Source: Perna viridis (lineage: Eukaryota). From it: 64,000 nucleotides of DNA. The notes beneath the pieces were generated by a model, which had not been told where the DNA came from, searched no databases, and saw only the letters and a program-made list of their open reading frames with translations. Location: contig CM074522.1 in assembly GCA_037379345.1 (NCBI GenBank), positions 3,906,001-3,970,000 on the forward strand. The letters run 5' to 3'. Position numbers and translations under genes: made by a program. Positions 2,982 through 48,000 of the stretch are shown piece after piece (within the stretch, counting starts at the first letter, position 1; the number at the start of each line of letters is the position of its first letter).

Positions 2982-4799
2982 GGCTTGCAAAATTAAAATG
3001 CACAATATTGATAATAACACACAGTGTGCAGTATTTTTTGACATTATACCAACATAAAGAGTTGGGCTGAAATGTAGAAATGCAAGCCGAATTTGTATAC
3101 TAGTACATGATTTGTATTAAAGTCACAGACAATGATTAAGTTGCAAAATGCTCACATTGTAATAAGTTATAACTGACTACTAGTCAAAGTGGTTAAGTCA
3201 TTGATTTCAATTTGGCTCTCTCTTACAAGTTTTAATCACATCACTATCCTGGGAGTGCGTTTACATTACTTATTTTTTTTATTAAAGTTTGGATGCCCAT
3301 GTCTGGAGCGGTAAGGTTTGTTTTATCCTCAACCGGAAGTTGATTTTTTTTCTAATAATAGCACACTTCAATAAGTTAATGATTTTGCTCAAGTATCTAT
3401 CGTGGATTGTCATGACTTTTAAAAAAATATATTTTGAGTTAAATTTAATACATAATTAGATAAAATGCTCTTAAATATGTCCTTATTGTATATTCGAGTG
3501 TCCTTACGCAGGTCAGGCTAAAACAAATGTTAATATTTTCGATTATTATTATCGTTCTGATACCGTTGATTATAATAATTTTGTTATCGGAGCCTTTCAG
3601 CGCTTACTTGAATGTGTGTTTACACTTGTTGAACTCTGTAAGTATGTACTATTTTGGTAAAGGTTGTACGATGGTGCATTTGTTGCGGTTCACCATAATT
3701 ATCCGTTCCCTTTTCTATAACTATTTATCAATTAAATGAGTATATAAATCCACGTTGATTTCAGAAAGACTATAGCAACTTCATTATTACACGACCTTTT
3801 CCTGGCTATTTCAAAATAAACAAAATGTTCTTATCGGGTATAAATAACCTTACAATGTTCCAGTATATAAAATGGGAAACAGATCCTAAGATTCGTGTAT
3901 AAGAAGAATGTGTTAAATAATACGTCTTCAGAAAATATAAAAGATGGATATCAAAATTAAATCTAAAATGAAGTATATATAATTTAAAAATCTGTACCTA
4001 AACAAATATTCTGCTCAGGTCATAGGAATCCCGGGTCGTCTTTGATTTTGAACTTTGTACAACTTCATGTAAGGGGCCTTGGGTTCTTCTTATACAAGTT
4101 GACCCCAAGATAAGAAAGTAAGACATTTTGTTTTGGAAACAGTACATCTGATCTCCGGTTACTTAATTGGGAAATCTCCGCTTTCCAATATCAATATTCA
4201 TTCGGAATAGCAATTACATTGACGAGACTTACTCGTAATAGAAGGACATAGGCGGATCCCGGGGGTGGGGTTGGGTGCTTACTGCTCCCCCTGCTAAAAA
4301 TTTTGGTATATTTTATATCACAGGAAATCATCCTTTTTTTACTCAACAATAGAAAATCATATAGATAATGATTTAATGTACATGTATATGTTTTCCAGGT
4401 TACTTAACAAGAAAGATTTAAAAACTAACATATTGATTTCGGTTGCTGCTGAACTAATAAAAAAAGGGCTTCCCTGAAAACAAAATTCTTACCCAACATC
4501 AAATCCCAGGTACCCTTCAGGATAAAAATGGCCGGTGCCTTTCTTGTCATGTCATAATTTTTAAACAAATGATGAACGATTTAAATATGACAGAATAAAT
4601 AAACCATTTGCAAGCCCCTTTTGGATTATATTTGGATAAGACTGGTTTTTCAGTTTTACCAGTGTTCAAAATACATGTACACTGTTATTAAGGAACTTTA
4701 AAAATGTCTGGTTCTGACAGGTTTTCGGATTATTAAGGTTTTGGTTTAGATAGGTTTTACTCTATCAAGAATACATCGTTCACTTCTGTTGCTTACTGC

Positions 4800-14800: not shown

Positions 14801-17800
14801 GTATAGTTCACCAAAGTAAAATGAAAGAAAAATGTAATTTAATTATCAGTCCAATTTCGCTTATGTCTAATACAAAATTTAACTAAATTAGTTTAGTATT
14901 TCTCTATGGTGATCTTGCGTGCTCTTTTCGATTTCGGCTGGTTGATTGCTATATTCTCTCAAGAATTGTGCCTATTGAGAAGGTTCGGCTGGTTGATTGC
15001 TATATTCTCTCATGAATTGTTCCTATTGAGAAGGTTCGGCTTGTTGATTGCTATATTCTCTCATGAATTGTTCCTATTGAGAAGGTTCGGCTTGTTGATT
15101 GCTATATTCTCTCATGAATTGTTCCTATTGAGAAGGTTCGGCTTGTTGATTGCTATATTCTCTCATGAGTTGTTCCTATTGAGAAGGTTTTAAACTTCCA
15201 GCAATTGCACTTTATTCATACATGTCATGATTAGAGACAAAAAATTACGTCATGACTCCTTTATCAGATGGCCGGTTTAGGAGTTAATTACATCGTTGAG
15301 TTTAATTGAAATTTTGCTGATTGTATACGTCGCACTAGAAACAAATTTTGATAAAATATTTTGTTCTTTTGTTTGAAGGTTAAGTATGTTAACTTTTGTA
15401 TTTCTTACTAAGAGAGGAACGGTAATTCGTTACAACCATATCCATCATAATCTCCAGTATTACTACGGGGCAGATGTCCGAGGGGTGATGTTAGATGACC
15501 AATATTCTAGTGTGTTAGTGGAGAAAAACGTCTTCTATGACGTAAGTTTGTTAAATATGATTATTGCTATTTTGTTTAAAATCCCTTTGATCTTGCTATA
15601 CGATACTTTTCCAGCTCATGCCAGTCGAGTGAGAATGAAAGTTATTGCTAGTTTCTATGACCTCGCATGACATACAAGCAACAGCGTAGAAATATTTGAC
15701 GACCCAAAATGACCGTCTCTTTGTTTACTGCGTATGAAATAATGGCTAAGTTTTGGCAATATTGTTTATTCTACAATGGAAAATGATTAAATACAGTAAC
15801 TTACTCGATTACAATGAATATATCTCAAAATTATTCCACAAACTTTAAACGCGACCTTCATAGTTAACCGATTTGTTTTTTTTCAAATGTGTATCACAGC
15901 TGCACAACAAACGTGACATCACGTAGCACGTCGCCGAGAAATAGTATCGAAAGGAAATTTTGCAGCCTTATAAAACTTACATATTTTGGTCAGGACTATT
16001 GAAAATAAAAGAAAACAGCGATAAACAGATTATAAAATATTTTTTCAACTCGCGGCAAAGTCGCTCGACGAGATGAGCATGAGATATTCCCTCTCGTTGA
16101 AAAAATATTAAATAATCTAATATTATCACATTATAAGTAACCATGTCTATACAGCAAATTTGAAATAAAAAACACAACACAACAAGTAATTATCAGTTGC
16201 TTTTGGATTTTGAACTAGCTTTAAGAAAAAAACGAGTACTCTTTCGAGACAAATTTAAAGCTTGTTGTCTTTTATTCTATTTGCGCTTGTATTCAGTATC
16301 AATCTCAAGAGTTCAATCCGAACTCAACCGATCTTTATAGTAAGTTTTATTGTTGTATTTTCTCATTACTGTCCCAAGTTTAAGGGGGTTGAGCATTCAC
16401 AAATATGTTTAACCGCGCCGCATACGTTGTGTTCCTGTGCTAAGCCAGGGAACTCTATAATCCATTGGTTGTTTTTTTATGTTCATTGTTGTTCGTTTAT
16501 ATTTACGTTTTTTTTCTGTAAATTAGTTTGAGTTTCGTTTTTTATTGATATTTTTACTTCATTTATTTTGAGGTCTTTTACATCTTGCTTTATGGTATGG
16601 GTTTTGCCCATCATTGAAGACCGTGTGGTGACCTGTAGAAGTTTAATTGTTTGGTTTTGGAAGTTGATTGTCTCATTGACAATTATACCACATCTTCTAT
16701 TTTTATAAGGTTAACAATGTCATCACTGTATCAATTTGAAAAAAAAATCCATGTTGCAGTTTGTTATACTTTCGTTTTGTTTTCATATGTTTAGTTGTTA
16801 ATAATTTCTTCTTGGCATTGTCTTTCTTTTTTCTTAATTATAAATTGCTTGTTTTAGCCCTTTAAATGTATTAATAGTCCTTCATAAATAGCTGTACAAT
16901 ACAGCAGTACGACAGTCCAGTTATTAGAACGTGCATTATATGGTTCAATATCAAATAAATCGTGTTTGTGCATGACAACCATAAAGCCTATATTTATTTC
17001 AGAATGCTGGACATCTGAACATTGGTGGAGGGAGAGACAACATAGTACGAAACAATGTCTTCTTCAATTCAACAAAATTTTCCATCCAAGTGGATGCCAG
17101 AGGCTCAGCTCATAGAAACGATCGATCATTAATGAACATTTTAAATGTAAGACCAAAATATGTATAATGATTAAATCAGTTTAAATTGTTTCCTGAGAAG
17201 ATCTGTTACATATACAATGTACATTTGTTTTACGTGTACAAAAACTACAGTTTTTAGTAGGAATTTCCTATCGGGCTTATAAGTTGGAATTGAGTTTGCA
17301 GGCGTCATTTACAGAAACAGTAAGAACGGGTTAAATATGATATTAATTTGTTCTCACATGTTGCAACGGGAATAAAATGCATTTACTTGGTGGATATTTT
17401 TTTGCAATTGTGTGGTAGACTTATTGCATATTCTAGATAGAGTGAAAAAAGTAAAATAGTCGAGCTGCCATATTGTTCGAGGATTATAAATTAACCAAAT
17501 GGTTTAAAACAAATGTTGGACCTGTTTGTGATAATTGAACCAAAGCTTGACCATAATTAAAATAATAGTAAATAAGCCTATTATGTTGATTTGTTTTAAT
17601 GTACCTTCATATTTTACAGCGTTTACCGTACAAAAATAAACTCTGGGCTTCAAAATTTCCTAAACTTGTGAATATCTTAAATGAACACCCAGAAGAACCA
17701 AAAGGTATGTACATATCATTGTGTTATATTTACAAAAGACACAATCATTCCTAACAAGAATTCAAGACAAACAAGATGATTGTTAATTACACTAACAAGG

Positions 17801-22802: not shown

Positions 22803-23176
22803 CGATTGATTGATTGATTGATTGATTGTTGGGTTTTAACGCCCGAGCAGCAATATTTCAGCTATATTCAGGCGGTGAACATGAAATGGATGATAAAATG
22901 AACATGAAATGATGATGATGATGAAATGGAAAAAAAGGATGGGACACAAGGATAATAGGGTTGACAAATTATGATTGCCACTAGAAAAAGGGACGGATGG
23001 GTAGGGTCGGGCAATGTAGCCTCCTGTGGTGGAACGAAAAGCTTCCTACTATCGAATACCACAGCAGAGTTCTTTAACGTGCGAGGAACGTGGCATCTTT
23101 CCCAACACGGTGCACCACTATGGTTTGCGGTTAGGTTTTCCATATTATAGCCTGACAACCCCAGCATGTAGCACGC
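22803..23176 (-). mobile_element. Family A element, 5'-truncated
   Basis: (CAAT)n tail and body homologous to the other copies; possible short TSD GTCGA. Confidence 0.85.
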
Positions 23177-23552: not shown

Positions 23553-26500
23553 ATGGCTTGGCGAGTTTTGTTAGTATTTGGTTTTACATTTCTAGTTTCT
23601 GCAGAAACACAGCAGGATGTATTTCGTAGACTAGGTAACAGTATCTTTCAATACAAAAATATCAGCGAAATGGTTTCAATGTTTAACAAAGCGATAAAAC
23701 AACCATAGCATAAAAGAAGAAGGAAAATTCAGAGGCATTAAGTAGCACTCCAGCTAAGAATCATGCAAAATGTGATTCATGGGTAAAAAGCCTACATATA
23801 TTTATGTTTGATATTTTGTTTGAATTGCCATAGTAAACAACAATTTTCATTCAGTTTTTCATATAACTCGTGTTCTTAGGAGATAAAAATTATATAGAAT
23901 GCACTGTAGATTTTAAAATTAAGGGAGATCAATCTGTAAATTACACTACAATAGAATATATTGGATTTTCAATGTTGATTATCTCCTAAGAGCAGGCAGA
24001 TTTGAATGAATTATTACACATATCATAGTATAGACCCATAAAACAACTTAATTACAAAAATAAAAATATATAGCCTTTTTTGGGGTGTATCACATTTTTC
24101 AGAATTGGCATGATTTTTACAGAGACAGCTACTTAAAAGACAAGTGTATGGCCAAAATGTGAAAACAGGAAACACGTGTTTATATGTTAATAGCAGGCAC
24201 AGTTATGATAATCTGAATAGGTTGTTTCAGTTATGAAAATCGATAGGTTTTTACATAGTATTTCCATATCGCCCTTGATATGGTCATGTCTGTATCATCA
24301 CTATAAGTTATACCCAGACAAAACTTAAATGTTTCACAGTTTTAAGAATTCATTACTTCCCGTGTCAAAATATAACAAGAATAGGTATGGTGAATCTGTC
24401 AAAGAGACAACAACCCCATCTAGATGAAAACGTCAGCCCAAGGCCGGCAACCATTGGTCTTCAATGAACGACAAGGAAACCTTCACACCAGATAGTATAC
24501 AGCAACAGGACCCAAAACATCATAATATACAGGAACAGCGAATGATTTGCCCCTGTATACTTAAGTAACATAAAAATAAACTAAAGGGGAATGCTCACAA
24601 TTTGAAAAATAAACAATATAACAGTAAATATTTATTTTTTATTCTTATTTTTGAAATTTTCACATAATATTAGAATTATTGCATTTAGCAAAATGTACAC
24701 AGGGTAACAATATGTCAAACTGCCGAAATTTTGTGGTTGTTTAACTTGTTTTGAGAAGCCGAGGAAAATAATGTACTTTCAGTCATCAAAAATGGTAAGA
24801 ATTCCGGAAAAACCCTGTATCTTACCAATCTTACAGCTAATTGGATTAGTTTTCTATTTTTTTTATTTAAGGTTTTTTAAACAGCTTTATACAAATAATT
24901 CAAATACATCAATTATATAGCTTTTCATCGAATTTGGTCATTTCCCAAGAAAAAAATAAGTCTAAGCAGTCCGATTACTGAACCTCATTTTGGTTCAGTT
25001 TGTATTACTGATTAATTTTTTTTTTTCATAAGCTTTTTTAATACGTGAAATAAAAATATTTCTGGAGATGGGGAGACAGGGGGACCCAACTTTTATCCGT
25101 TACTCCTCATACACAAATTAATGGAATTCAATGAAACTTTCAAAAATCATGATACTATGCTCCTGTTGTGCATCTTTTCTATATTGATTAGGATCAAAAT
25201 CTCATATTTTAGTATGCCTGACCAGTTGAAATTGAAGCATTCAAATTATTGGCTAAAGTAAAATAAGAAAGAATAAACCCACTTCAACTTTTATCAGCAT
25301 GTAACTTTTGAATTTCGTATTGATTTAGATCAAAATCTCAAAAAAGGTGAACAATGGGAACATGTAATAAAGATTTTGAGGAAGTTTCGTTCAATTCCAT
25401 ACAGTGGTGTAGGAGGTTCAACGGGGAAAGAGAAAGGAGTATTTATGGCGTTCAAGGAAATTAGAGTAGTTAGTACTTGCTCTACGGAAGCGAATCAATT
25501 GTGAAATATATACACCATATGCAGGAGATGAAGGTATATTGTTGCACAGATAAGGAAAAAATATGATATTAAAATTAAAATGAGATTTCACTAGAAGTTA
25601 CAACTACTCGTCGAATGACACAAATCTCATTTGTGACCATTTTAAAATGACAGAAATTTCAAATTATCATATACTGAACACTGCTGATCAGAATTTTATG
25701 AACCTCGATATATATTCAACACAAATATCAAATGAACGTACCTAAAATTCACGTATCTCTGCTGTCGTTTTTACAATTAGCAGCCAACATGGTCGACAAC
25801 TCACAACATATTCATATGTAGGTACTTTAAACCGTATGGATCAATAATACGCTTACAAGTTGACGATTTGAACTTTTTTGTCTCTCATTTTCAAAATAGT
25901 CAGCTCTGCTGTATAGAAATCAGCACTGACTAGTTCAGTTAAAATATATCAGTATTTTTTGGTTTCTTGGTCAAAATTATGTAGTTTAATTGACAATATA
26001 TATATTTCAATTAATAACGTATGCGAATGGGAGGCGACTTCTACACATTTCAGAAACATAGATTGTAATAAAAGGATTTGCTTTTATGAAGTTTTATACC
26101 TTACACAGATACAAAATACATAAAAATATTAAAAGATTAATATTATAACGAGAATAGTTATGGTGTATATTTCAAAAAGATAACAACCCCACCGGGGGCT
26201 GAAAATTTCAACCCAAAGCCACCCATTGGTCGTGGAAATCTTTATATCACAGGGCAATTGGCCTCAAAATATTATACACAGGTACAGCGAAAGATTTCCC
26301 AATGTATAATCAAGTAACATAAAAGAATTAAGAACGGGTCAAAACGAAACAAGATATCCATAGGCCAGAAATTCCTGAACTGGGACAGGCGCGAAAAATG
26401 CGTGATCACAATCCTCCCCCTTTAAAATCTGGCCACTGTGGAAAACGTATTCCACAATTAAACACACCTAAAAACCAGTTCAAAAAGGTCTGAGTCCCTT

Positions 26501-29500
26501 GTTACAACGGAAATATAGAAACTGAATATAAATTACACAAATGTACAAACTTAGGTCTACCATCAGTTAACTGATATGCCAGCTCCAAGCCAGTTCAAAC
26601 CTATAAAAAATTATGTCCCCATCGTATATAAAATCAATGCAAATTATTACTCCTTCCCATGCAGGTTTGCGAATCGCGGTACATCAAAGGTCATGCAATA
26701 AGGACACAACCCATATCATACCGAAATCTGCTTTTAAAATCTACTGAACCACCTCTATCTGTAATAGATAGTCTTCCCTTTTTCACCGAATGGCTCACTG
26801 TTCTGGATTTTCATCCGGTGTGCTTGGGTTTTTTTGTATGTAACATTTCATTTCTATTGTGTTTTACGATTTGTCAATTTAAAACGTCTAGCTCGTATAG
26901 TACGTTACAATTAAGACAGTTCAAAGTATCTTTAATGGGTATATCACCATCGATATAGCCAAGTATGCAATATTACAGTGTTGTAAATGACATCCATTAT
27001 TATAGTTACGATAACGTAACCCTGTGTCCTATACTCTCCCAACATCGGCACGATTCTATCTCATTGCTCATAATGGCGCAACATTGCTTCCGAATGCGAA
27101 CAAATAGGTGACGTAAACTACTATAAACATTTAGTACAACGTATATTAACCATAAATATATTATATTTTCTTGCACCAGTTGTTTCTATTCAAGTTCCAA
27201 CTGCATTTTGTTCTCTTTGCGTTCATTTAAACCTTTACTTCATGCAGAATAATTTTACTTCAGAATAATAATATTGGACAATATCTTAATATTGTTGCTA
27301 GCCAAATATAAATCAACATGATTTTAAAGTTCAGTCCGAGGTTATACATTTCAGACAACATATAAATAGAAAAAATGAAACATCCTGTCTTTTTTGCTTA
27401 TTTTACAGATTTTATTCAATTTTGATTGATTATTTGTGTGATGTTATTTTGTTCAGTGTTAAAAGAAATATAATTATTATATGACCTACGTTTAAAATTG
27501 TACTTCTTTTAAAACAAATGATCATTACTTGTAGCGCAATTAGAAAATAAAAGTGGACTCGATTGAGGCTAAAAACTCACATCTTACATCAACGGTCGAA
27601 AGTCTTCAAAATACAATTGCTGACCTTAAAGAAATTTTAGCAGAAACTACTAATGGAAATAAGAAAACAGCTGGTAACATAAAGCGACTACTAACAAATG
27701 GTAAACTTAAAAATAAATGAAATACTGTCTATTTTTTTTTCATTACATTTATCATAACATTGCACTTTGAAATTGTATATAGTAAATATTTTTTTAAGTC
27801 CATGTAAGAAGCAAAATAAATTATAATTCGCAGTTTTTAGTGGAGTCCGTTTGTTTGTTTGTTTGTTGGTGTTTAACGTCCGAGCAGCAGTATTTCAGCT
27901 ATAGTCAGACGATGAATATGAATTTGATGATAAAATGAACATGAAATGATGAAATGAAAAAGGGATGGGACACAAGGACAATGGGGTCGAAAAATTTTGA
28001 TTGCCACTGGAAATAGGGAGAGGTGGGTAGGGTCGGGCAATTTAGCCTCCTGTGGCGGAGCCCTATGGTTCCTACTCCGGGAGAATACCAAAGCAGGGTT
28101 CTTTAACGTGCGAGGAACGTGGAATCTTTCCCAACACGGTGCACCACTATGGTTTGCGGTCAGGTTTTCCGTATTATAGCCTGACAACCCCAGCATGTAA
28201 CACGCCAGGGGTACCCCATTCCACCACCTGGGGCACACATCCCAGTTGCTCTGTGAGCAGAGCGCCCTAGCCCCCGGCTAGGGTTCTGAGCTCTATTTAG
28301 TCGCCTTTTACGACAAGCTTAGCGCTGCTGCAGGCCTATTCTTTTAACACCCGGACCTGCACGGGGATATTGGAGTCTGAGTTGCTCATTTACTTTTGTT
28401 ACTTTGTATGTATGATTTTAGTTACTTATGTTCTTTGTTGTGTATGTCTGTTTTCCATGTCTGGTCTTTGTCCCTGGATTACATTATAACCTTGGTTCCC
28501 TTGATCACTCTTTCGAAATAAGCATGTCAAAAACCTACCAATCGGACAATACGCTTTAACTGAAGGAAATCTTATTTATTTGAAATGACCATTTCATTTG
28601 ACCTCTGCCTGACTTGGAAGTGTTGGAAATTTTTCATTAGAAAGTAAAAACAAATAGTGGTTTGAGAGAGTTATATGTCCCCAAAATTATCATTTGCAGT
28701 GCATTTAAGCTCATTAGACGAAATGGAAAACATGATCTCTATTCCTTTTTTTTTCGGTGGTATAAATAGTCAGGTCAAAGTGGTAGATTAATTCATATCA
28801 TTTCTTGGTCACTTCATGATTCTTACACCTTATCCGTAGGTTTCTCTAAATGATTAGAGCAACACACAAAAAGTTAGAAAACATGGTACTATAAATTCTG
28901 AAAATGACACGAGGTTGCCTACCTACGGAATATGCTATTTCATATCGCATTGACAACTCTGCTTCCAAAACATCCAGCGACCTACATGCAGCACTCATCC
29001 TTAAAGAGAATTGCTCTTAAAGCACGATATAAAGGTCAATGCAACTTCTTACGGAATGGCCCCGTGCAGGTCCGGGTGTCAAAAGAATAGGCCAGCAGTA
29101 GCGCTAAGCTTGTCGTAAAAGGCGACTAAATAGTGCTCAGAAACCTAGCCGGGGGCTAGGCGCTCTGCTCACAGAGCAACTGGGATGTGTGCCCCAGGTG
29201 GTGGAATGGGGTACCCCTGGCATGTTACATGCTGGGGTTGTCAGGCTATAATACGGAAAACCTGACCGCAAACCATAGTGGTGCACCGTGTTGGGAAAGA
29301 TGCCACGTTCCTCGCACGTTAAAGAACCCTGCTGTGGTATTCGGTAGGAGTAGGAACCACTGCGCTCCGCCACAGGAGGCTAAATTGCCCGACCCTACCC
29401 ACCTCTCCCTATTTCCAGTGGCAATCAAAATTTTTCGACCCCATTGTCCTTGTGTCCCATCCCTTTTTCATTTCATCATCATTTCATGTTCATTGTATCA

Positions 29501-30203
29501 TCCAATTCATGCTCATCGTCTGAATGTAGCTGAAATATTGCTGCTCGGACGTTAAACCCCAACAATCAATCAATCAATCAATCAATCTTACGGAATGATT
29601 CATTCAATCGGAAGTTTATAACAATACACAAAGACATCCAAGTTCGAATATGTATCTCGTATTAATTATGCAGATCTTTTAGTCTTTGCACGAATATTTT
29701 ACCGCATCCTTCACTAAATTGTAATACTCGACATTAATTATTTGCAAATATATTTTTCTTCGATAGGGAACTTTAGTTCACAGACGACTTCGGTAGCATT
29801 TGCAGCATGTCTGACGCATACCATAGACTCTCTTGGGTCTCATCAACTTATTGAATATGATAACGTTATCACAAATGTAGGGAATGCGTATGACGTGAGA
29901 CATGGACATTTCGTATCGCCATTAAAAGGAATATATCTAATAACTGTGACGGCTTATGGTTGGAGTACTGCGTCTTATACTCTTGCATTAGACTTAGTCC
30001 TGAACGGTGAAGGGAAGGCAACACTTTTCGCTGATGGCAGACAACACGAAGAGGACATAACAACTATATCATGGCCTTTTGTATTAGAAGCAGGAGATAT
30101 GATGTGGGTAAGGAACCATGCCGGCTACGAAGGAAAACACATGATGGGATCTCCTATTTGGAACATGAATTCGTTTTCAGGTGTTCTTATTCAAGCATTG
30201 TAA
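23553..30203 (+). CDS. Secreted C1q-domain-containing protein (signal peptide + coiled coil + gC1q); exon 2 has an apparent +1 frameshift
   Basis: Exon 23553-23634 (MAWRVLLVFGFTFLVSAETQQDVFRRL), exon 27535-27700 (coiled coil ..VDSIEAKNSHLTSTVESLQNTIADLKEIL..KRLLTN), exon 29767-30203 (VAFAACL..IEYDNVITNVGNAYDVRHGHFVSPLKGIYLIT..LEAGDMMWV..NSFSGVLI), a typical gC1q domain. Confidence 0.85.
23738..24136. mobile_element. Second copy of the TTAA-flanked MITE, in intron 1 of the C1q gene
   Basis: End-to-end homology with 1663-2067 and the same termini. Confidence 0.75.
25434..25620 (-). mobile_element. Second degenerate Penelope-like RT remnant
   Basis: Nucleotide homology to about 44890-45050 (TATTTATGGCGTTCAAGGAAAT..GAATCAATTGTGAAATATA..CATATGCAGGAGATGAAG). 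Confidence 0.7.
27850..28366 (-). mobile_element. Family A element, full-length copy nested in a family B element
   Basis: Imperfect TSD TGGAGTCCG (27841-27849) / TGGAGTCTG (28371-28379); the flanks join into a family B sequence. Confidence 0.88.
29059..29585 (+). mobile_element. Family A SINE-like non-autonomous retroelement, full-length copy
   Basis: 12-bp TSD TCTTACGGAATG (29047-29058 / 29586-29597). Starts GCCCCGTGCAGG; internal GCACGTTAAAGAACCC (Meta-domain-like); tail GCTGAAATATTGCTGCTCGGACGTTAAACCCCAA followed by (CAAT)n. Confidence 0.9.
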
Positions 30204-30354
30204 AATGAAGCTTCGATTCCATAAATTTGACAGCGACGTGGTAGTTTCCGTTTATTAATTAAAAAATGTCGGCGAAACGCAAATGCTAAATTCTGATCTT
30301 TAAGATCAAGAACAAGTTTAATGGACTACTAAATTTTTCGTTTGTCTACCGCGG

Positions 30355-30606
30355 ACTTAACTTTTTATGAGCAACTCAGCGGGTGTTTCTAGAAAAGCAG
30401 AGGACGCTTACCCTACCGGTGCACCTGGTCCATGCTCCCAGTTTTTAGTGGAGTCAGAGTTGCTCATTTGCTTTTGTTACTTTGTTTGTATGATTTTAGT
30501 TACTTTATGTTCTTTGTTGTGTATGTCTGTTTTCCATGTCTTGTCTTTGTCCCTGGATTACATTCTTTTGATTACCGCTATAACCTTGTTCCCTTGATTA
30601 CTCTTT
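30355..30606 (+). mobile_element. Family B interspersed repeat (~250 bp), most complete copy; probably derived from a Penelope-like retroelement end
   Basis: GAGCAACTCAGCGGGTGTTTCTAGAAAAGCAGAGGACGCTTACCCTACCGGTGCACCTGGTCCATGCTCCCAG..TTCCCTTGATTACTCTTT. About 11 copies, mostly 5'-truncated with a shared 3' end. Confidence 0.8.
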
Positions 30607-31008: not shown

Positions 31009-34000
31009 CTATATATAGACTACATATTTCTGAAAAGTGGCATATATAAAACACAACATATATACAATGAAATTGTTCGTATCAACTACGACACCACTTT
31101 TGGAGCCATCGCTGTCATCTCCGCCGGAAATGTCACATGATTTTACAGTCTTCCAATCGCATATGCCGTCTTCATCACGTGAACAATAGCCTCGCTCCAA
31201 TAAACATGTGGCATTACTAGATAACTCACACAAATTTATTGTTTCGGTTCCATTAGTGTCCTCTTCAGTTAGTTGGAAATCTACAACCTGTACCAATAAA
31301 ATGAAAACATTACAAATTAAAAATCCTCGACCATCGGATACAATAATATATTGCGCAAACTTTTACCAAAGCTATGGTGAAGACAACATCGTTGGGTATA
31401 TGTGCTTGTTTTGACTATCTTTTTTTCCCTTTTGTTTAAGCTTTAAAATGATTAAATGAAGACATGTTACGCTAACGAAAATGAAACTACATTTTTCACT
31501 TAAAAAGGAAAAAAGGACTATTTAAATCTCCTTTATTGAATAAAGTATTACTTTTAGAAGGACACATGCAAAAATTAAGAAAGTATCTGAACATTGTATG
31601 AATTATTAAAAACAAAGAAACACAATGAAGTCACACAATGCACGTATACAATATTCATTGACATACATCCACACAATTCTCTGACACGCGGTTACCTTTA
31701 ACGTTGCACAGGGAGTATATCTTACCTGACAGCTACAGTTATAGTAGTGCGTTATGTGTTCAACATCTCCCTGCAGGGGAACTTCATAATTCACAAGCAC
31801 TGGTAGGTATGTTCCATTCTGTTTGTTGGCTATTTTGTCATTTGAAAACAAAAATAGTCACAGTATATGCATTGTTATTTTAAAACATGTACATGTATTA
31901 TAAGATTACACGTACTCTAAACTATCGTACAAGTATTAGCTTTGAAAATTCTAAAAAGGATATCGAGAGCTTCGCTGTGTCATATATATTTAGTTGGTAC
32001 AATAGTGTCGTTCGGAAATCTTTCATTATTTTCCGCGAATGTTTAGTTTCTAACTACTCATTTATTAAAAAAAAACCAATTTCTTATGACAATTCTATGT
32101 ACAGACTTCTTTAAAAGACTATAAAAACGATATACAAAAGTTCAACATTTCTATTTAGATAATAAATACTGCCGTTGGCTAAAAGCATCTTTTTTTCAAA
32201 CACTTGCTATGTATAGGTCACACAGTGTCCACGTCAATTAACCGAGACAAGACAAACTGTGTGTTTGTTTGTTTGTTTGTTGGGGTTTAACGTCCAAGCA
32301 GCAATATTTCAGCTATATTCAGACGATGAACATGAAATGGATGATAAAATGAACATGAAATGAAAAAAAAAAGGATAGGACACAAGGACAATAGGGTCGA
32401 CAAATTTTGATTGCCACTGGAAAAAGGGGGGATGGGTAAGGTCGGGCAATTTAGCCTCCTGTGGCGGAGCGCAAAGGTTCCTACTCCTATCGAACACCAC
32501 AGCAGGGTTCTTTAACGTGCGAGGAACGTGGCATCTTTCCCAACACGGTGCACCACTATGGTTTGCGGTCAGGTTTTCCGTATTATAGCCTGACAACCCC
32601 AGCATGTAACACGCCAGGGGTACCCCATTCCACCACCTGGGGCACACATCCCAGTTGCTCTGTGGGCAGAGCGCCTAGCCCCCGGCTAGTTTCTGAGCAC
32701 TATTTACTCGCCTTATACGACAAGCTTAACGCTGCTGCAGGCCTATTCTTTTAACACCCGGACCTGCACGGGGCACAAACTGTGTGTATTTCTATTTTAA
32801 GATCGTGCGTCGTATTATTTAAGAATTAATTTTGCACTACGAACTTTTTTAACATGAATGCATTTCAAGGAGTCCAGTCATGATCATTTATTCAACTGAA
32901 AAGTTTTCTCAGCTACCTGATTAATGTTATTTTACACCATATGAAATCGTCTGCTTAAGAATATTTAATCTATCAAATGTGAAATTTTTGTAACAGTCTG
33001 GGAAGTTGGCTTTTTTTTTAAATTTACACATTCTATCCTTTTTCACAAGGGACTGACATACACATTTTGAGTTTGTCTTTTTTTTTTTTTTAGAATCGGA
33101 CCTGAATTGTTGAATCGTTTCTGTCCCGACATTTGGTATTCGGCAATTGACCAATTAAATGCCATGTTATGAATCACTATAAAAGGAGTCGCAGCTTCTG
33201 ATAGAAAGAGAGTAATCAAGGGAACCAAGTTTATAGTGGTAATCAAAAGAATGTAATCCAGGGACAAAGACCTGACAAGGAAAACAGACATACACAACAA
33301 AGAACATAAAGTAACTAAAATTGTACATACGAAGTAACAAAAGCAAAAGAGCAACTCGGATTCCACAAAAAAAAAAAAAACTGGCAAGTTCGTAATTTCA
33401 TTTATTCAAAATGGCGTGTATATCACAAGGCATTAAATGTTTCGCTTTTGGAAGCGAAGCAAAAGGTACGAAAACACTTCAAATAAATACAGTACATACG
33501 GAAATTTTTGTGGCGTTTTTCGCTGAGATGTGTAAACGCAAATACAATGTTATCGAGAATATTTTCTATAGAATAGACAACAAGATAACTGATTAACCAT
33601 TGTGAATGGGGAATTGCCACGAAAATACATTGATAGGATAATCTCCAAAGAAAATGACAATGCAAAACTTCTTAGTTTATAGTGAACGAACAAACAAGTA
33701 AACGATCAAAGGAATGAACGAATCTTGACAACTTCGATTGTATAAATTTCGCTAAACATCTGAGGAATATGCAGCGAGCAGTTATTTAATAGATTGAGTG
33801 ATCAACATAACAACTCAGTGCAATTTAGCATTCTTAAATATGATACAAATGAATATTCATAAATATAACCTACCAAATATAAGATACTTCTTGTTAAGCA
33901 ATATCCTCTGGCTGGTATTCTCACAATGGGATGGTACAATGATTTGACCAGTAAAAGTCCTGAAAAACTCTCTTCCATTCTGCAAAGGATATGTATTTCA

Positions 34001-36616: not shown

Positions 36617-36865
36617 AGGGAGTAATCAAGGGAACCAAGGTTATAGCGGTAATCAAAAGAATGTAAACCAGGGACAAAGACCAGACATGGAAAACAGACA
36701 TACACAACAAAGAACATAAAGTAACTAAAAACATACATACAAAGTAACAAAAATAAATGAGCAACTCGGACTCCACTAAAAACTGGGAGCATGGACCAGG
36801 TGCACCGATAGGGTAAGCGTCCTCTGCTTTTCTAGAAACACCCGCCGATTTCCTCATAAAAAGTC
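36617..36865 (-). mobile_element. Family B repeat, near-complete copy
   Basis: Reverse complement of the 30355-30606 copy, including the structured head. Confidence 0.8.
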
Positions 36866-39800: not shown

Positions 39801-40063
39801 ATTGCTTTCTTTTTATTTCCGCTAGAACCTTGGTTCCCTTGATTACTCTTAAACAAATGCACAAGCATATAAACTAAAAACAAAATAGTAGGTACTCTAT
39901 TAGTTCTTTTAGTAATCTCCACATGACAATATCAGAACAAACGTAATATAACGACATAGAGACACATAAATGACCAACAGTGGACAATCAGTATGCTGTT
40001 TCGCAGAATCTTAAAATTAAAAAAGCTACACGATGTACATGTACATTGAACATTACAGGTACA

Positions 40064-42082
40064 ATGTCTGATTCAAAGATGAATGGCCGAATAAAAGTGA
40101 CATTTACCGTAATTCTTTTATTACTGTTCAGTGGAATGCTAGGAATTATTGCATGGCAGGTAGAAGAACATCGCAGTAGTAAGACACAGCCGAACAACTA
40201 CCAATCTAGTGCCGAGCTCACACTAGGGGCAATGAAACTTAACAAAGACAATATGTCTGTCAGAATCGTTGATTCGAAATCAACGTCAAACCGACTAACA
40301 GGGAAGCTGTTTGTTAACCGAAGTGTCAACACTACGGGAACAGACTGTGGTAGCGATTCGACCAAAATTTGCATGAACTGGGCTAATGATCGCAATGTTC
40401 AAATCACATACAAGGCGTTCGGAACTGTCGATTGCTATTTCTTCGAGTGGATAACGCTTCGTTGTGAGAGTCAGGTTCTGATGGATTGCTTCGATTTAGC
40501 AGGAGCACACTGGTATGGCGGCTATGAAGACTGGAATCAGTATTGGCCCTTGGAGCAAACCTCGATGAATACAAATGCATTTTTGGCCAATGATTCATAT
40601 CAGAAATTGTTAGGTGGTGTTCAAGAGCGGTATTTTATTAATACCCAAGGGATAGGGTTCAATGTAAGTGACGATGTTCCTCTTTTTCTAAGCATCAACA
40701 AAAGTTCAGATGGCAAAATGTGCTTCACGGCAAAGTACGATAAATATCCGTATACCAATACGCACAGGTCTCCTCCTAAACTAATGTACAAGATATGTAC
40801 GGCAGATAACGTACGGCAAATACATGACTTTATGTCAGCATCTCTCCCGAACCCCTCCGATATTCCCGACAAAGATCTCTTCCGGTACCCTATCTGGTCA
40901 ACTTGGGCACAGTATCATAAAGATATAAATCAATCAACTGTATTGGAATTTGCGTACAATATCTTGAAGTATAAATTCGGACATTCGCAGTTGGAGATTG
41001 ATGACGACTGGACTCCTAAGTATGGAGACATGGACTTTACAGCAAAGAAGTTCGAAAATGCTAGTGACATGATAAAACAACTGAATAAAATGGGTTTCCG
41101 AGTAACCATTTGGGTGCACCCTTTCTTCAACATAGATTCGCAAGCTTTCCTAGAGGCTGGTGTATTGGGTTTCTTGGTCCGACAGTATGATTCCTTGCTT
41201 CCTGCTTTGGTTTCATGGTGGGATGGCAATGCAGCTGGAATTCTAGACGTTTCGAATGAAAATGCAACAACATGGTATTTGAATAAGTTGCGGAATCTAC
41301 GCACTACTTACAATATAAGTTCTTTTAAATTTGATGCTGGTGAATGCAATTGGCTTCCAAACATCTTTGCAAATCCGTTTGACTCTCCAAACTTTTATCC
41401 AACAAAATGGGCAGAATTAGCTTACAATGCTGACAAAAACGTACGACATCAAGAAGTGCGAGTAGGCGTGAACACGCAGAATCTTCCGATATTTGTGCGC
41501 ATGCTTGATAAGGACTCAAATTGGGATTACCGGAATGGACTTAAAACGCTGATTAACACGGCTCTTACATTCGGAATTCTTGGGTATCCGTTTATCTTAC
41601 CGGATATGATAGGTGGAAATGCGTACGAAGGACATATCCCGGAACGAGAATTATTCATTCGGTGGTTAGAAGCGACGGCTCTACTTCCGTCGATGCAGTT
41701 TTCCATCGTCCCTTGGCAGTATGACGAAGAGGTTATAAACATATCAATAAAATTTACCAAGATGCACGAGAAGTATAGTGATTTAATAATTGAACTTGCA
41801 CAAGAGTCGGTCCGTACAGGAGCACCCATAATTCGTCCGATTTGGTGGGTAGCCCCGGATGATGAAGAGGCGCAAGTGATAGATTCCGAATTCTTATTGG
41901 GAAACAACATTTTAGTTGCTCCAGTATTACAGAAGAATGCCCGATCTAGAAATATCTATTTACCTGCAGGGCGATGGAATAGTACGACGAATGGAACCAT
42001 TTTCGATGGACCAATATTGGTTCAAAATTTTCCTGCAGCTTTGGACGAACTACCTGTCTTTGAACGTGTGACGGCAAATTGA
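40064..42082 (+). CDS. MYORG: MYORG-like (myogenesis-regulating glycosidase / KIAA1161-like) GH31 glycosidase, type II membrane protein, single coding exon
   Basis: ORF 39980-42082; the likely ATG is 40064, just after the splice acceptor CATTACAG. N-terminal TM helix (VTFTVILLLLFSGMLGIIAW), HWYGG, PIWSTWA, LEIDDDW, GFRVTIWVHPF, nucleophile KFDAGE, acid/base LPDMIGGN, PIIRPIWW, FLLGNNILVAPV, YLPAGRW. The symbol denotes family likeness, not proven orthology. Confidence 0.92.
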   Translation: MSDSKMNGRIKVTFTVILLLLFSGMLGIIAWQVEEHRSSKTQPNNYQSSAELTLGAMKLNKDNMSVRIVDSKSTSNRLTGKLFVNRSVNTTGTDCGSDSTKICMNWANDRNVQITYKAFGTVDCYFFEWITLRCESQVLMDCFDLAGAHWYGGYEDWNQYWPLEQTSMNTNAFLANDSYQKLLGGVQERYFINTQGIGFNVSDDVPLFLSINKSSDGKMCFTAKYDKYPYTNTHRSPPKLMYKICTADNVRQIHDFMSASLPNPSDIPDKDLFRYPIWSTWAQYHKDINQSTVLEFAYNILKYKFGHSQLEIDDDWTPKYGDMDFTAKKFENASDMIKQLNKMGFRVTIWVHPFFNIDSQAFLEAGVLGFLVRQYDSLLPALVSWWDGNAAGILDVSNENATTWYLNKLRNLRTTYNISSFKFDAGECNWLPNIFANPFDSPNFYPTKWAELAYNADKNVRHQEVRVGVNTQNLPIFVRMLDKDSNWDYRNGLKTLINTALTFGILGYPFILPDMIGGNAYEGHIPERELFIRWLEATALLPSMQFSIVPWQYDEEVINISIKFTKMHEKYSDLIIELAQESVRTGAPIIRPIWWVAPDDEEAQVIDSEFLLGNNILVAPVLQKNARSRNIYLPAGRWNSTTNGTIFDGPILVQNFPAALDELPVFERVTAN

Positions 42083-44601
42083 TTTTAAAAAATCTGTTAA
42101 TATAACTTGAACATGTTCGCTATTAACTTTTTAATTTTTTAAATCTTAAAGTTTCTGAACTTTAACGTGTTGTATCTTATATCCACATTTTCTTCTTACA
42201 TGAATATTTAAGTTATTTGATAAGTCTTTTTCGTTGCTTTGTGACATCATATCTGTTTAAACGAAAAATGGGTTTAGTGAGTATTTTAAGTTATTTTATT
42301 AAATCTGCAGACCAAAAATACCGTGCAAAGCCACGAAAACTTACAAATGTTTTATTTAAAGAGTTAAAAATGTTTAACATGCAGCATTTCTAAGGAAAAG
42401 AGCCACGTGAGCTATTCCAAATATGCGTCTGTCCTAATACACCATTTTATGAAACCATTAACTATTAAAGGCTTAAAAATATTGCCGTTTTTGCTATCTT
42501 AAAAATGTCAATACTTACATCAGCATTCCACGTTAGCCTTTCAAACAAATGTTTTCCTTCTGGAACCACCTTGTAGTTCACAAAGTTTGATCATCTGCAT
42601 TATTTGGGTGTATACTCTTAATATGCTGATCCGGTATAACAAAAATGGCTGCCATGTTTATTTGTAGATCATAAAGGGTTTGAATCGATAATATCAAGGT
42701 ATATAGAGAAAATATGGACTTCCTATCATTTGAAGAGCTTTCCATAGAGTCACGGCTATGTATAATAGAATTATACCTTATTAATCTTTATTATCAAAAC
42801 TATTATCATTACTTTGCAGTTTCTTTAAAAGAGGGATCAAGGGAACCAAGATTCTAAAGAATGTAATCCAGGGACAAAGACCAGACATGGAAAACAGATA
42901 TACACAACAAAGAACATAAAGTAACTAAAATTATACATACAAAGTAACAAAAGCAAATAAGAAACTCGGACTCCACTAAAAACTGGGAGCATATAAAAAC
43001 ATTATTATTGGAAATACAGTTACGAAATTATCCTATAATAGATAAGGCATACAAAAGTCCCTATGTGCCGAGGATGTAGGATCACTTCTTTTCAGTTAGG
43101 TCCCTTGATGGACGAAAAATTGTGTTTTACAGTATATTAGCCAATTATATCTTGATAAAAATAAATGACAGGAATATATACCATAGAACTGTAGCAAATA
43201 GGGAAAAGTTACGATGGCTGAAATAGTTTATTTTTTCCCGGAGGCTAAAGAAATGAGTTCCATGTGAGGGTTGTAGGCCTTCTAATTGCCCTTGTTAACA
43301 TGACTTCGTCACATTAACCTATTTGTAACAGATTCTTGTTGTAGTTATTGACAGTTTTATATTGCTTGTTTTTCCTAAACCTTAAAAAATAGGAAAGTTA
43401 ACTCTTATGTGACCTACATTATATGAAAACTCCGAAAAGGTTTTTTTTTCTCGTTTAATACCTATTTGACCAAATACTTCTGGGTGTTAAATATCTATCC
43501 AAAGTGGGTTTTTTTAAATCGTAAAATGGCAATTTGACTTCCTACTTCTGGTGTATTTTTTAAGACGTCTTCATCAAGGGGATATGTGAATGGAAAACAT
43601 TTTCTTTTACTTTTTCGACTTTTGAATAGGAAAATTAAGATATATCTATTTCATTCCTTTTACTTTTATTTTGAAATGATTAGTATATCTACAGAAACTC
43701 ATATAAAAATGGATCAAACTTAACGATAAACATGTGAAGTCCTTAATCTGAGACAAGTGTCAAACTCAACTACTGTACACCTCCTTCCAGTTACGCATGA
43801 ATAGTCAATAATTCGTGTACATGCACGTCTTTCAGGGGAACCTTAAAAAACTATAATAAACTTCATTTTCAAATTTCAAAGATAGAAAAAAAGTCGATGA
43901 AAGATGTTTCTCTCAATGTTTTGTAAGGCGAATAAACCACAAAGGGTGGTCCCTGGTTGATTTCTTTTAGATGTTTCATTAGATGTTTGTACACTTCCAA
44001 ATGTTTGTAATCATTTGTAAATGTTTAAAAGCAACAGTTATCAAATACAATCATATAATATTTCCACAGATAACGAAATAAAAGGTCCCAACAGAAAACA
44101 AATACGGAATCCATTAGCGTCATTTCTGTGTGTTACAGGTACACACATGATTAAGAGTCAGGCAAAAAATCCGTAATGTACTTCCATTGTGCCTTTCCTT
44201 GGTCAATCCGCCATGTTAGGATATGAAAGTACTGGTATTTACTTGTAATACATGCAACTATGACTTACAGATTGTGTATTACAATGATTATTGTCTACAT
44301 GTAATAAATTGGGTATTCAAACAAAATTCAACCCTCAAAACTTTAGAATGTAAACAATGCACGGTATTAAAAAAATGTAAGCAAAAAAGCTTTGAAGAAA
44401 GGTGTTAAATCAAACTTCAGTTACATAAACTTTCTAAGTCAATATGATTTAAATTTGAAAGCTCGTTAAAACTGTGTCCGTTGCGGACCTACAGCCTCAG
44501 TAGATAATGTTAACAACAAAACACTAATCCAATGCATGACCCAGTCAGGTCCAAAATAAATCTGGCAAAATAAATATTACACCATCGGAGCTGCTGGTAC
44601 C

Positions 44602-44691
44602 GCAATGGTCCTGTCTTGGTACAGGCATTTCGAACTAAATGGTAGGTTAAATCTAGGTTTTACAGCGCGCTAAACCTTCCTCTTCCATTGC
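44602..44691 (-). ncRNA. Twister-ribozyme-like module (P5-type permutation), slightly degenerate
   Basis: Minus strand: GCAATGG-AAGAGGAAGGT-TTAGCGCGCTGTAAAACCTAGATT-TAA-CCT-AC-CATTT(agttcg)AAATG-CCTG-TACCAAGA-CAGG-A-CCATTGC. P5 7 bp, P3 5 bp, P4 CCTG/CAGG, T1 ACC/GGT and the UAA motif all occur in twister order. Confidence 0.5.
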
Positions 44692-44757
44692 CGCGTGAAT
44701 ATACCAGTGGTGATTAAAAACATCTGCATGCTATTGTTAAAATCGGCAAATCAGCGG

Positions 44758-45063
44758 TCACAAAGAGCAACTTACAAAAAACCAAACAAACAAACAAACA
44801 AAACAAGAAGAAACTGAGACCAAGGACTTATATCTAAAAATGAATTTTGTAAGAAACCTGTTAAGACACATTTCCTCATACCCCTGATTAAGGAGTCTTT
44901 TACGCAGATATTTATGGCGTTCAAGGAAATCAGAATTGTTAGTACTTGCTGTAGAGTAGGGAATCAATTGTGAAATATAAACAACATATGCAGGAGATGA
45001 AGCAATATTGCTGCACAGGTAAGTGAAATTTTTCGTAATAGAATTAAAGTTATACACTTCCAC
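44758..45063 (-). mobile_element. Penelope-like retroelement reverse-transcriptase C-terminal (thumb) remnant
   Basis: NF.YLCSNIASSPAYVVYISQLIPYSTAS..SDFLERHKYLRKRLLNQGY matches the invertebrate PLE RT motif FxFxxxNFPxLxSNIPxxPAYGVYISQLIRY..DF..R..L..LLxQGY. Confidence 0.75.
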
Positions 45064-48000
45064 TTTGTTAATATGTATTAAATTGTCTAGTCATTGTAAT
45101 GTCTCTGTTTCATGTAAAATATTGATATCTGTATGTACCCAATCATTTAAATCATCTGTGTTTTATATATAATATATGAGTCTACAGATGTAATTAGTTT
45201 ATTAATAATTGAATATCTCGCATCTTGTACATGTCTCTTGTATCTAACAATGATCTTGAACCGAAATACAAAAAAAGAGCATCAAGTAAAAATATAGTTA
45301 TGCATTCCTTCCTACCTTATAATTACAAGGCATAGTACTAAAGAAACGTGAATCGATCTTTTTTAACAGGTAACGACCGATGTCAAAAACATGCCAGTTG
45401 TTTTGAAACAAGCATGGCCGGCGATGCTACAGCGCTAATTAGTCTAAATGAGCGTGGAACATGGTATATGTTACAACAGGCTACTGATTAATGACCACTA
45501 TATATTAGTGATGACTTGTCTAAATGCATGTATTGTACATCAGATTTGTTTCTTGTTATTCAATTTACAATGTAATAATTTGTGATTAGGAAATTGATAA
45601 TCACCATTACATGTACGTACACATGCTTTCATTTTGGGGACTTTTTTTGGTGGTCGGATTTGAAGCTTTATCTAATATTGAATGACATTAAGTGTTGAAA
45701 TACATGTAAGGACGTAAATGTATACAGAAACGTATTTATATAAGCGTCACTAACAATTTTGTATTTTTGTATTTGTTTGTTTGCGTTACTACGCAATGTT
45801 TTGCGTAATAATGCATATAAATTAGAAGTTAAGAAAGTTAGAGGCTAATATGCTTCCGTAAAAGGCTGCTTTTTTTAAAACTCAGGCTTCAGTAACAGAT
45901 CTAGCGGAGTGGTCCATAGGCTGGATCCCCTTTTTGTTGACGATTTTGTGTATTTCATGGATAGTTGGAATTAATAATAGTAGCCTAATACCCCCTTTTT
46001 AAATTTCTAGATCGACACCCCGCTTTTAAAAAAAAATAGTTGATTCGCCCTGATTTTCTTTCAACGTCGATTGGTAGAATTTTGAACAATAATAGACTGA
46101 AAATTCCATAGCCTAAACCTTTTTATCTTCAATATATGCCGCGTATATGAGGTACAGGCAACATATGCCAATTTTAAAATCTGTTATATGACTTGGTATG
46201 GTTTCGATCTCCTTGTTCTCGAAGCAAGCAACCACTATTACCACATGTTAAAGAGGTTCAGTGCAAAGAAAAGTGCGAAAGTCGCTCTACCTCCTTTGTC
46301 CCTTTAAGTTATTATCCGAGAGAGATGTAAAGTTATGAAAATAACCTCGCCATCCCTGTTGGGAAATGAGGCCTCGGGAAAGTACAAAATCTAGACGGTA
46401 AAACTAGAACAAATCGTACTGGCGACACTGAGAAAAAGATCGAAGTGTGTGATCTGGGACCCGTGTAAAACAAAACTCATGTGAACTTATTATTTTCAGC
46501 GATTGATACTTAAAACCTCATTTCATGGGTTCCAAATTCTTAGCTTTATTTCCCTGTGTGTTTTCCTATGGTGATTAACCATGAAACGGTATAAGAGGCA
46601 ACATTTTAATTCTATTGGTTTTAGTAGTGAACCTTCACTAACGTAAGAAAAAGAATTCTGTTTATTTTACGTGATTCTCTACAAACATCATGTACATTAT
46701 TCCCTTGTATTCCGTCGATCTGTTAAGCTATTCAAATTTATGTTATTCTACATCTGACTATTAGAGGAAATGAGGCGAAAAATTTAGCGGAGACAAAAAT
46801 GCTGTAGCGTGTAATTGAATAAGACATGTAAGCACGGAAGTTTTGGTATCAACAGCGATAGTTTAAGAACATTTATTTAATTGGTATCTCGCTATATGAA
46901 CACCAGTTAAACAAAATTTATGGTTATTGCATTAATCCATGCATTGTTTGTAGTATATGTTGTTATATTGAATTCATAATTTAAAAAAACTTTTTTGTCG
47001 CGGTCCGTCCGGCCTTTAATTCTATTTACGCCTCTCCCCAACCCCAAATCCTGGATCCGCCATCAAACATTTTACAAATACAAATGCATAACTATTAATT
47101 GAAATAAATATACAATGTACAGTTTGTTTTCGCGTCATCCGGCTTGTTTGTGATTTTGGCTTGCGAAATTTCCAAGTGCACTTCCTAGCACTCAAACCGC
47201 TGTCATGGGAAGATGCTGTGTTCATCTTTCCGGTTTCTTTGACTCATTTCACTTACATGTATATAAAGCCTCTTTAAAAAATGGAATATATGTTTGAGTA
47301 AAGAAAACTAATGGGATTGATAAAAATACATTTGTGACAGTAATCAAAGCAATTAAAATGATTTTAAAAAGCGTCAGACTCTTTTTTTCTTCATTCAGAT
47401 TGTTTCTTACTATAAAATGATTGTAAACGGGATTGCCGATTTGGCTAAATGGGAAAATCATAGCCGGATAAGAAAAGACAAAAGCGGGAAACTCATAACC
47501 AAATAAAAAAGGCACAAAGCGGAGACGCAGAATAACAGTTTTATGTTCATCAAATCTGTATTTACTGATTGGGATTTTTCTTTAATCCCTTGCATCATGC
47601 TGGTATGTTTTATTTTGTATAACTTAATTCGAAAGCACCTAAAAGTTTGCCAAACAAACTTCCAGCATTATCCGAAATATATTTGATATAACTCAATGTT
47701 ATTTTGACTTTAGTGTGCAAACACATGCATCAGTTATAATAACAAACTCGTGAGCTATGCGACTGCCGTGCGGTCAAATTCCCTTTCTGTTGCAAAATTT
47801 TAGATAAGAAGAAAGCTTTTCTGAAGTATCCACTAATCCTTCGAATCTTTATTAATCTCTTATATACAACCGTCCTAATCGTTTCAAGAAGAAGTGAATT
47901 ATGCAAAAACAATTTAAGTAACTAAATGACAAGTTTGAGGAATCGCGTAACGTTATGGCGATATTTGAGATTTTTTGTTGCGGAAGTAAGGATTCAAAAA

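Follow-up and report, generated by a model that had tools for sequence, protein, structure and literature searches.

A conserved type-P5 twister variant without P1, predicted in the 3′ repeat of Naiad Penelope-like elements and carrying two covarying palindromes

The closest described relative of the RNA module presented here is the type-P5 twister ribozyme (Rfam RF02684, clan CL00120). With it the module shares, in a comparison against the RF02684 consensus outside the 20 model positions covering P1, the permutation opened at P5, the order of the strands, the G-A preceding T1, the N-A-A cleavage motif, the elements T1, T2, P2, P4 and L4 and a spacing of ~20 nt from the T1 strand to the cleavage motif. 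In contrast to these twisters, the module has no P1, possesses two palindromes in fixed register as well as a P3, scores below the Rfam gathering threshold and sits in an animal retrotransposon. A related architecture has been described for the hammerhead ribozymes of Penelope-like elements (PLEs), which also lie in the pseudo-LTR region, lack the helix next to the cleavage site, carry palindromic loops instead and were proposed to act as dimers, possibly with circularisation and more-than-unit reverse transcription (PMC4209133). The Naiad module would belong to another ribozyme class and has two 10-nt palindromes, whereas the hammerheads have one loop of 2–4 nt; moreover, the helix missing from the PLE hammerheads (helix III) is essential there, whereas P1 has been reported to be dispensable in twisters. 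A weak or missing P1 within a retrotransposon is likewise documented for the T-variants of the Schistosoma Perere-3 twister (PMC8501958) and for truncated RTE twisters (PMC7761336). As described there, these are type-P1 twisters at the 5′ end of non-LTR elements that obtain P1 from flanking DNA and whose copies start at the cut, whereas the Naiad module is of type P5, lies 3′ of the reverse transcriptase (RT), is self-contained and occurs in copies that extend past the cut.

Naiads are characterised by an N-terminal GIY-YIG domain, CxC and DKA motifs, a C-terminal RT, heavy 5′ truncation and very high copy numbers, and were reported to have no canonical hammerheads, a lack taken to suggest that these ribozymes might be passengers (PMC8557442). 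The strings “twister” and “palindrom” do not occur in the main text of that paper, though its consensus sequences hold the module, and no report of a twister in Naiads was found in the freely accessible literature searched. The CHiTA study deals with type-P1 twister forms, and its supplement might list mollusc twisters.

The locus lies in a 64,000-nt stretch of the genome of Perna viridis (the window). An earlier note, made from the letters of the window, had described a permuted twister-like ribozyme on the minus strand at 44691–44602, with two palindromes replacing P1. Direct reading of this strand recovered every listed stem, both palindromes and the cleavage motif at their positions. The helix names and numbering used in the following are those that we take to be canonical for twisters.

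44602..44691, minus strand: decayed Naiad family A copy of a type-P5-like twister module (sequence, alignment of 30 family copies, Rfam match of the intact relative L195)
44691-44685 with 44608-44602, minus strand: P5, GCAATGG/CCATTGC (sequence, predicted fold; paired in the folds of relatives, though its sequence varies by family)
44681-44679 with 44646-44644, minus strand: P2 (sequence, family alignment)
44674..44681, minus strand: P2 3′ strand, general-base position, conserved A and T1 3′ strand (family alignment)
44678, minus strand: general-base position, A in this copy, G in 27/30 family A copies
44676-44674 with 44620-44618, minus strand: T1 (sequence)
44663..44672, minus strand: palindrome 1, 10 nt, beginning one base past the T1 strand (complementary to its centre; cross-family comparison)
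44649..44660, minus strand: palindrome 2, 12 nt with one symmetric mismatch, its last base being the nucleotide 5′ of the predicted cut (linker-shuffle test, comparison)
44647..44649, minus strand: predicted cleavage motif U-A-A, cut 44649/44648, putative general-acid A at 44648 (homology to the Rfam Twister-P5 consensus)
44610..44646, minus strand: P2 5′ strand, T2, P3, P4 and loop L4 (family alignment, covariation; T2 broken at 44614)
44641-44626, minus strand: P3 (sequence)
44625-44622 with 44613-44610, minus strand: P4 (sequence)

The two defects suspected earlier in this copy are real: A replaces the family's G at the general-base position, and T2 is mismatched by A at 44614, where U is found in 24/30 family A copies. 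When natural twisters were tested on a large scale, mutation of the general base together with a pseudoknot defect was not tolerated (PMC11662667), and the window copy is therefore probably an inactive remnant, in line with the doubt expressed in the earlier note. The z-score of its predicted fold is -1.5, an Rfam scan of the 64-kb window returned no twister match at E<=5, and a loose twister descriptor proved uninformative, matching shuffled sequence just as often, with ~226 three-defect matches per shuffled window; the window copy by itself is thus weak evidence for a twister. From these same two observations, the missing Rfam match and the free matching of shuffled DNA, one might conclude that the twister likeness arose by chance within a repeat family. 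Its relatives make this exceedingly improbable. Twister-P5 was the top Rfam match of an intact relative (L195; 23 bits, E=0.0042), albeit below the gathering score of 37.6, and compensatory changes extend across families and phyla in both pseudoknots. Furthermore, a DNA search of the 723-Mb assembly for the repeat family of the module, here called family A, yielded 2746 first-look candidates, and a tight pattern with free linker gave 205 exact matches in the genome compared with 0 for the reversed pattern; the module is not a product of chance.

Among 30 aligned family A copies, the general-base position before the T1 strand is G in 27 and is followed by A in all 30; the T2 pair broken in the window is intact in 24; and the scissile nucleotide is followed by the putative general-acid A at +1 in 28 and by A at +2 in 29, both of which the window copy retains. 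A family consensus lacking the G-A before T1, the T2 pairing and covariation had been named as speaking against a twister; the majority carries the G-A and T2, and the pairs covary. The permuted fold proposed earlier, here assigned to type P5, is supported by the family majority.

The tight pattern also exposed at least four further twister-bearing families in the genome and matched at least 120 metagenome stretches, a few GC-rich matches being due to chance; among viral contigs it matched none. A module at 16380-16456, which the earlier note had taken for a second copy of the same family, belongs instead to family B (492 candidates), the majority of which shows the canonical twister core and two perfect 10-mer palindromes, while the window copy is decayed. 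A third family is likewise represented in the window:

16365..16471, plus strand: decayed twister module of family B, within an insertion at ~16198-16707 (family alignment)
26373..26418, minus strand: decayed twister module of family C, with palindrome 2, the cleavage motif and the P2 5′ strand deleted (comparison with relatives)

Within family A, the core has decayed as much as its surroundings (10-12% versus 9-10% in the flanks), whereas between families the core is better conserved than the flanking UTR (0.63-0.87 versus 0.55-0.63), from which it follows that selection acted on the active elements and not on these insertions. A genome-wide search with Rfam Twister-P5 gave no match and was flagged as uninformative. 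Rfam twister-P1 gave 19 matches in the genome, all below the Rfam cut-off and the best at 57.5 bits; none of the 10 inspected was this module, and all 10 belong to separate type-P1 repeat families. Type-P1 twister-like motifs occur in three or more repeat families of the genome (L111-L120, outside the window).

Several other features of the window deserve mention. A ~420-nt repeat is present in five copies (12781-13189, 22810-23176, 27849-28269, 29159-29581 and 32256-32675) that are 87-97% identical to a genomic relative, and its end presumably resembles an RTE-type 5′ UTR motif. A single open frame of 702 aa at 39974-42082 (plus strand) is, we assume, a membrane-anchored gene of glycoside hydrolase family 31 (myorg-like), and near 651-3116 (minus strand) there are apparent exons of a glycoside hydrolase family 9-like cellulase.

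The module adjoins a 110-aa ORF (45090-44758) that had been described as an RT thumb ORF. RT homology is found at 45069-44806 only, the rest of the ORF having none, and a Pfam search of the ORF returned nothing meaningful. Two further features on the minus strand define the insertion:

44806..45069, minus strand: C-terminal RT fragment of a 5′-truncated Naiad copy (64% identity to residues 806-894 of protein P0009)
44503..45069, minus strand: whole family A insertion, 5′-truncated, 3′ end approximate (81% identity to L029 over 45050-44520)

Protein P0009 has GIY-YIG at 32-122 and RT at 620-755, towards the C-terminus, and carries both the CxC and the DKA motif, the latter being present also in the genomic copy L104. 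Its C-terminal part matches ORFs of a metagenome locus (L142) in which the same module lies just past the stop codon, and another genomic copy (L316) displays the order endonuclease (EN), RT, twister. The RT ORFs of families B and C and of the metagenome relatives end without a C-terminal EN upstream of the twister (L128, L151, L185, L187 and L195). The 3′ end of family A matches the published Naiad_Bpla consensus (PMC8557442 supplement). In family A, the EN-RT order, the two motifs and this 3′ end identify the host as a Naiad, which sharpens the Penelope-like assignment made earlier. Copies of family A are 5′-truncated at scattered points and share their 3′ end; in the window copy, truncation has left the end of the RT. 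No pseudo-LTR pair of twisters was seen among the four best EN-bearing copies of family A, one tandem of 3′ ends exists at L345, and pseudo-LTR or partial tandem structures were observed in a sister family that has a different 3′ motif (L320, L322 and L325). At 25440-25588 (minus strand) lies another short piece of a Naiad RT C-terminus; it is related to family A and has no twister.

The conservation of the fold was assessed in 20 copies from different families. Pairing was observed in 96.9% of the cells, 9/18 counted pairs change on both sides, the covariation score was reached by 0/500 shuffles, and control structures slid along the alignment paired at 25-39%. The search pattern itself dictated P4 and much of L4, which carry no independent weight in this test, and P2 (2-4 bp) was left out of the pair count because of an alignment register shift. 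T1 was paired at 96.7% and T2 at 100%, each with one pair changed on both sides and each partly constrained by the search pattern. P2, P4 and a closing P5 are present in the folds and the alignment of the relatives, and P5 varies in sequence among families while its pairing is kept in the relatives' folds.

We further inspected by eye the last 330-400 nt of the 52 Naiad consensus sequences in the supplement of Craig et al. 2021 (PMC8557442). Seven of these 3′ ends contain the twister module, namely those of Mgal, Bpla, Mphi, Scon and Mmer (bivalves), Naiad-1_Movir (box jellyfish) and Mley (ctenophore), and their paired sequences differ in T1, T2, P2, P4 and P5, which supports the fold independently of the search pattern. 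Across these bivalve, box-jellyfish and ctenophore Naiads, T1 appears as four paired triplets, T2 in three forms and P4 in five, which agrees with the compensatory changes in P4 and T1 claimed earlier. Judging from these comparisons, compensatory changes are present across families in both pseudoknots, P3 and P4, and by the by-eye reading the module appears to span three phyla. As far as sequence comparison can tell, the Naiad 3′ repeat contains a genuine variant of the type-P5 twister that is conserved, lacks P1 and carries two covarying palindromes.

To characterise the palindromes, 18 of 27 clusters were used, decayed single copies among them; the nine left out comprised six family duplicates and three mis-anchored clusters. 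A single base separates the T1 strand from the start of palindrome 1, and the last base of palindrome 2 is the scissile nucleotide. Each palindrome outscores 5000 shuffles of the linker in which the invariant ends stay in place (p<=0.0002 for either palindrome, whether wobble pairs are counted or not), although the clusters are related, so that these p-values overstate independence, an effect offset in part by the examples from three phyla. Several of the decayed single copies score poorly, and the largest metagenome cluster has a weak palindrome 1 (4/5 pairs with wobbles). P1 amounts to 0 bp in 17/18 clusters, so that the replacement of P1 by two palindromes, as first described, holds for the clusters at large, and for this reason we file the module as a variant and not as a standard twister. 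Pairing of palindrome 1 with palindrome 2 as a substitute P1 was considered and rejected, their mutual pairing in the 18 clusters being weak. Palindrome 2 is a perfect 10-mer in families B and C and in several metagenome families. Palindrome 1 takes forms such as TGAGCGCTCA, TGGGATCCCA and TGGCTAGCCA, and palindrome 2 forms such as AAACATGTTT, AAAGTACTTT and AAACTAGTTT.

The sequence of the palindromes varies across families while the complementarity is kept up to the centre, where all four Watson-Crick forms (G-C, C-G, A-U and U-A) are found as the central pair. A hairpin formed by each palindrome was rejected, since it would leave the centre free, and a protein-binding site would keep its sequence; the simplest reading is therefore pairing between two copies, and the palindromes presumably pair between RNA molecules. 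A palindrome is identical on both strands, and sequence cannot separate pairing in RNA from pairing in DNA, so the palindromes might also act at the DNA or cDNA level, as a protein site, a cruciform or in cDNA annealing, within a P1 loop that tolerates insertions. We consider this very improbable: the sequence changes freely while the symmetry is kept, unlike in a protein site, the register is set by RNA landmarks, and a 10-bp palindrome that lacks a spacer is not long enough to form a stable cruciform.

Pairing between RNA copies was also examined by nested folding of 11 real copies, a model that leaves out pseudoknots and therefore overstates misfolding. In 11/11 copies, the predicted homodimers were 6.5-17 kcal/mol below two monomers; palindrome 1 was the main route of dimerisation, the two molecules exchanged P2 and P5, and one palindrome was paired at a time. 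In the predicted monomers, the T1 strand was paired with the linker at p>=0.5 in 9/11 copies (0.10 and 0.35 in the other two, so that this hairpin is not common to all families), and such pairing would stand in the way of the active pseudoknot. If both palindromes paired fully between two monomers that have already folded, the loops of the monomers would, for geometric reasons, interlock, which points to one duplex at a time or to a role after cleavage.

The latter leads to a rival view, in which the P1-less monomer is active and the palindromes function after or apart from cleavage, for instance in RNP dimerisation, in holding ends for ligation, in priming or in template jumping. P1 was dispensable in the twisters tested (PMC11662667; PMC8501958), so loss of P1 alone does not render a monomer inactive. 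Palindrome 2 ends exactly at the scissile nucleotide, and the 3′ end of the cut RNA would finish in palindromes 1 and 2, free to pair with a second copy; both duplexes could form without interlocking only once the loop is cut. A PLE protein has, moreover, been modelled as a dimer (PMC11167929), and a second Naiad motif with a different core also possesses two palindromes, which might indicate a Naiad-wide pairing signal. However, the start and end of the palindromes are locked exactly to T1 and the scissile site, the place at which P1 is stacked in known twisters; this suits a part in the catalytic fold, and the modelled monomers often bury the T1 strand. We regard this view as somewhat unlikely.

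The ends of the genomic copies bear on whether cleavage matters at all. In 67/88 family copies the 3′ end lies ~150 nt past the predicted cut (150 bin). The RNA being copied must therefore have been left uncut at this site, or else have been circular or longer. Contigs of four presumed-RNA sequencing runs support this 3′ boundary of family A, and loose contig ends at +16 fall at the divergence point of the sister families. Copy 5′ ends within 5 nt of the predicted cut number 5/88 and 3/60, about twice the local rate, and a cluster of 5 is also present at +19 to +24. That copies run 150 nt past the site without a clear excess of ends there would suit a fold serving as a structural handle, e.g., a binding or initiation signal for the Naiad RT-EN, with catalysis weak, protein-assisted or irrelevant. 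This would be reminiscent of the Poseidon PLE, in which hammerhead cleavage was protein-assisted and dispensable for insertion in vitro and reverse transcription started internally (PMC11167929). Yet the stems change across families and phyla, whereas the putative general base and general acid and the A-A pair persist, and nematode Naiads have hammerhead cores in this very slot, an indication that selection is for cleavage; a mere handle is in our judgement improbable.

The 3′ slot harbours other motifs as well. In a younger Naiad family of the genome it contains a different conserved motif (window 36790-36846, minus strand; L318-L330), with further copies near 30338-30606 (plus strand) and 62389-62612 (minus strand). 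In this motif, two short stems are predicted to form a pseudoknot, which is accompanied by a 10-nt palindrome, a GCUYAC box and a second palindrome of 6-8 nt. It was recognised by eye, with covarying stems, in 11/52 of the published Naiad 3′ ends (oysters, ark and pearl shells, Clytia and two hemichordates; PMC8557442 supplement), and an Rfam search gave no match at E<=10. It is a candidate uncharacterised structured RNA and possibly another ribozyme. Near-full-length Naiads with this motif are arranged head to tail at L321 (G000:C3:46039000-46048900) and L320, with periods of ~3.4 kb and 5.1 kb. In the same supplement, the Naiad 3′ ends of nematodes, octopus and coral show, by eye, hammerhead core boxes in an unusual stem order in the same slot, some of which look like non-circularly permuted hammerheads.

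Taken together, we lean towards an explanation in which a twister-type fold is kept in the Naiad 3′ terminal repeat, likely cuts itself in active elements and likely pairs with a second RNA via its palindromes, the window copy being a decayed example. Its parts differ in strength. The ancestral RNA of the family was very probably cleaved at the U-A site. With slightly less assurance, but still with good reason, we expect the palindromes to form RNA-RNA duplexes between two modules, either the pseudo-LTR pair of one tandem transcript or two transcripts. Whether such a duplex also takes the place of P1, releases the T1 strand from a rival hairpin in cis, or does both, and thereby favours cutting when two copies meet, is close to evenly balanced. 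In that case two modules, e.g., both pseudo-LTRs of a tandem transcript, would pair through their palindromes and cleavage would be promoted; by analogy with PLE hammerheads, this might release unit-length RNA from tandem transcripts and spare host transcripts that contain a solo remnant. Circularisation and more-than-unit reverse transcription could follow, as proposed for PLE hammerheads (PMC4209133).

A bolder proposal, offered tentatively and with the doubts outweighing, is that Naiads of at least three animal phyla use a dimer-gated twister, in which two intermolecular helices of about one turn each bridge the cores in place of P1 and only tandem transcripts are cut, and that ribozymes of different kinds (twister, hammerhead variants and the two-palindrome pseudoknot) can stand in for one another in this 3′ slot. 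If true, self-complementary arms in place of P1 would constitute a natural dimer-sensing architecture, of which we found no example in the literature searched, and the third motif, the further candidate ribozyme to which the 3′ slot points, would represent a novel self-cleaving class. Many invertebrate genomes are dominated by Naiads. A conserved twister in the slot otherwise taken by hammerheads argues that self-cleavage is selected while the ribozyme class may be exchangeable, and the module offers a compact RNA on which the function of PLE ribozymes can be tested directly.
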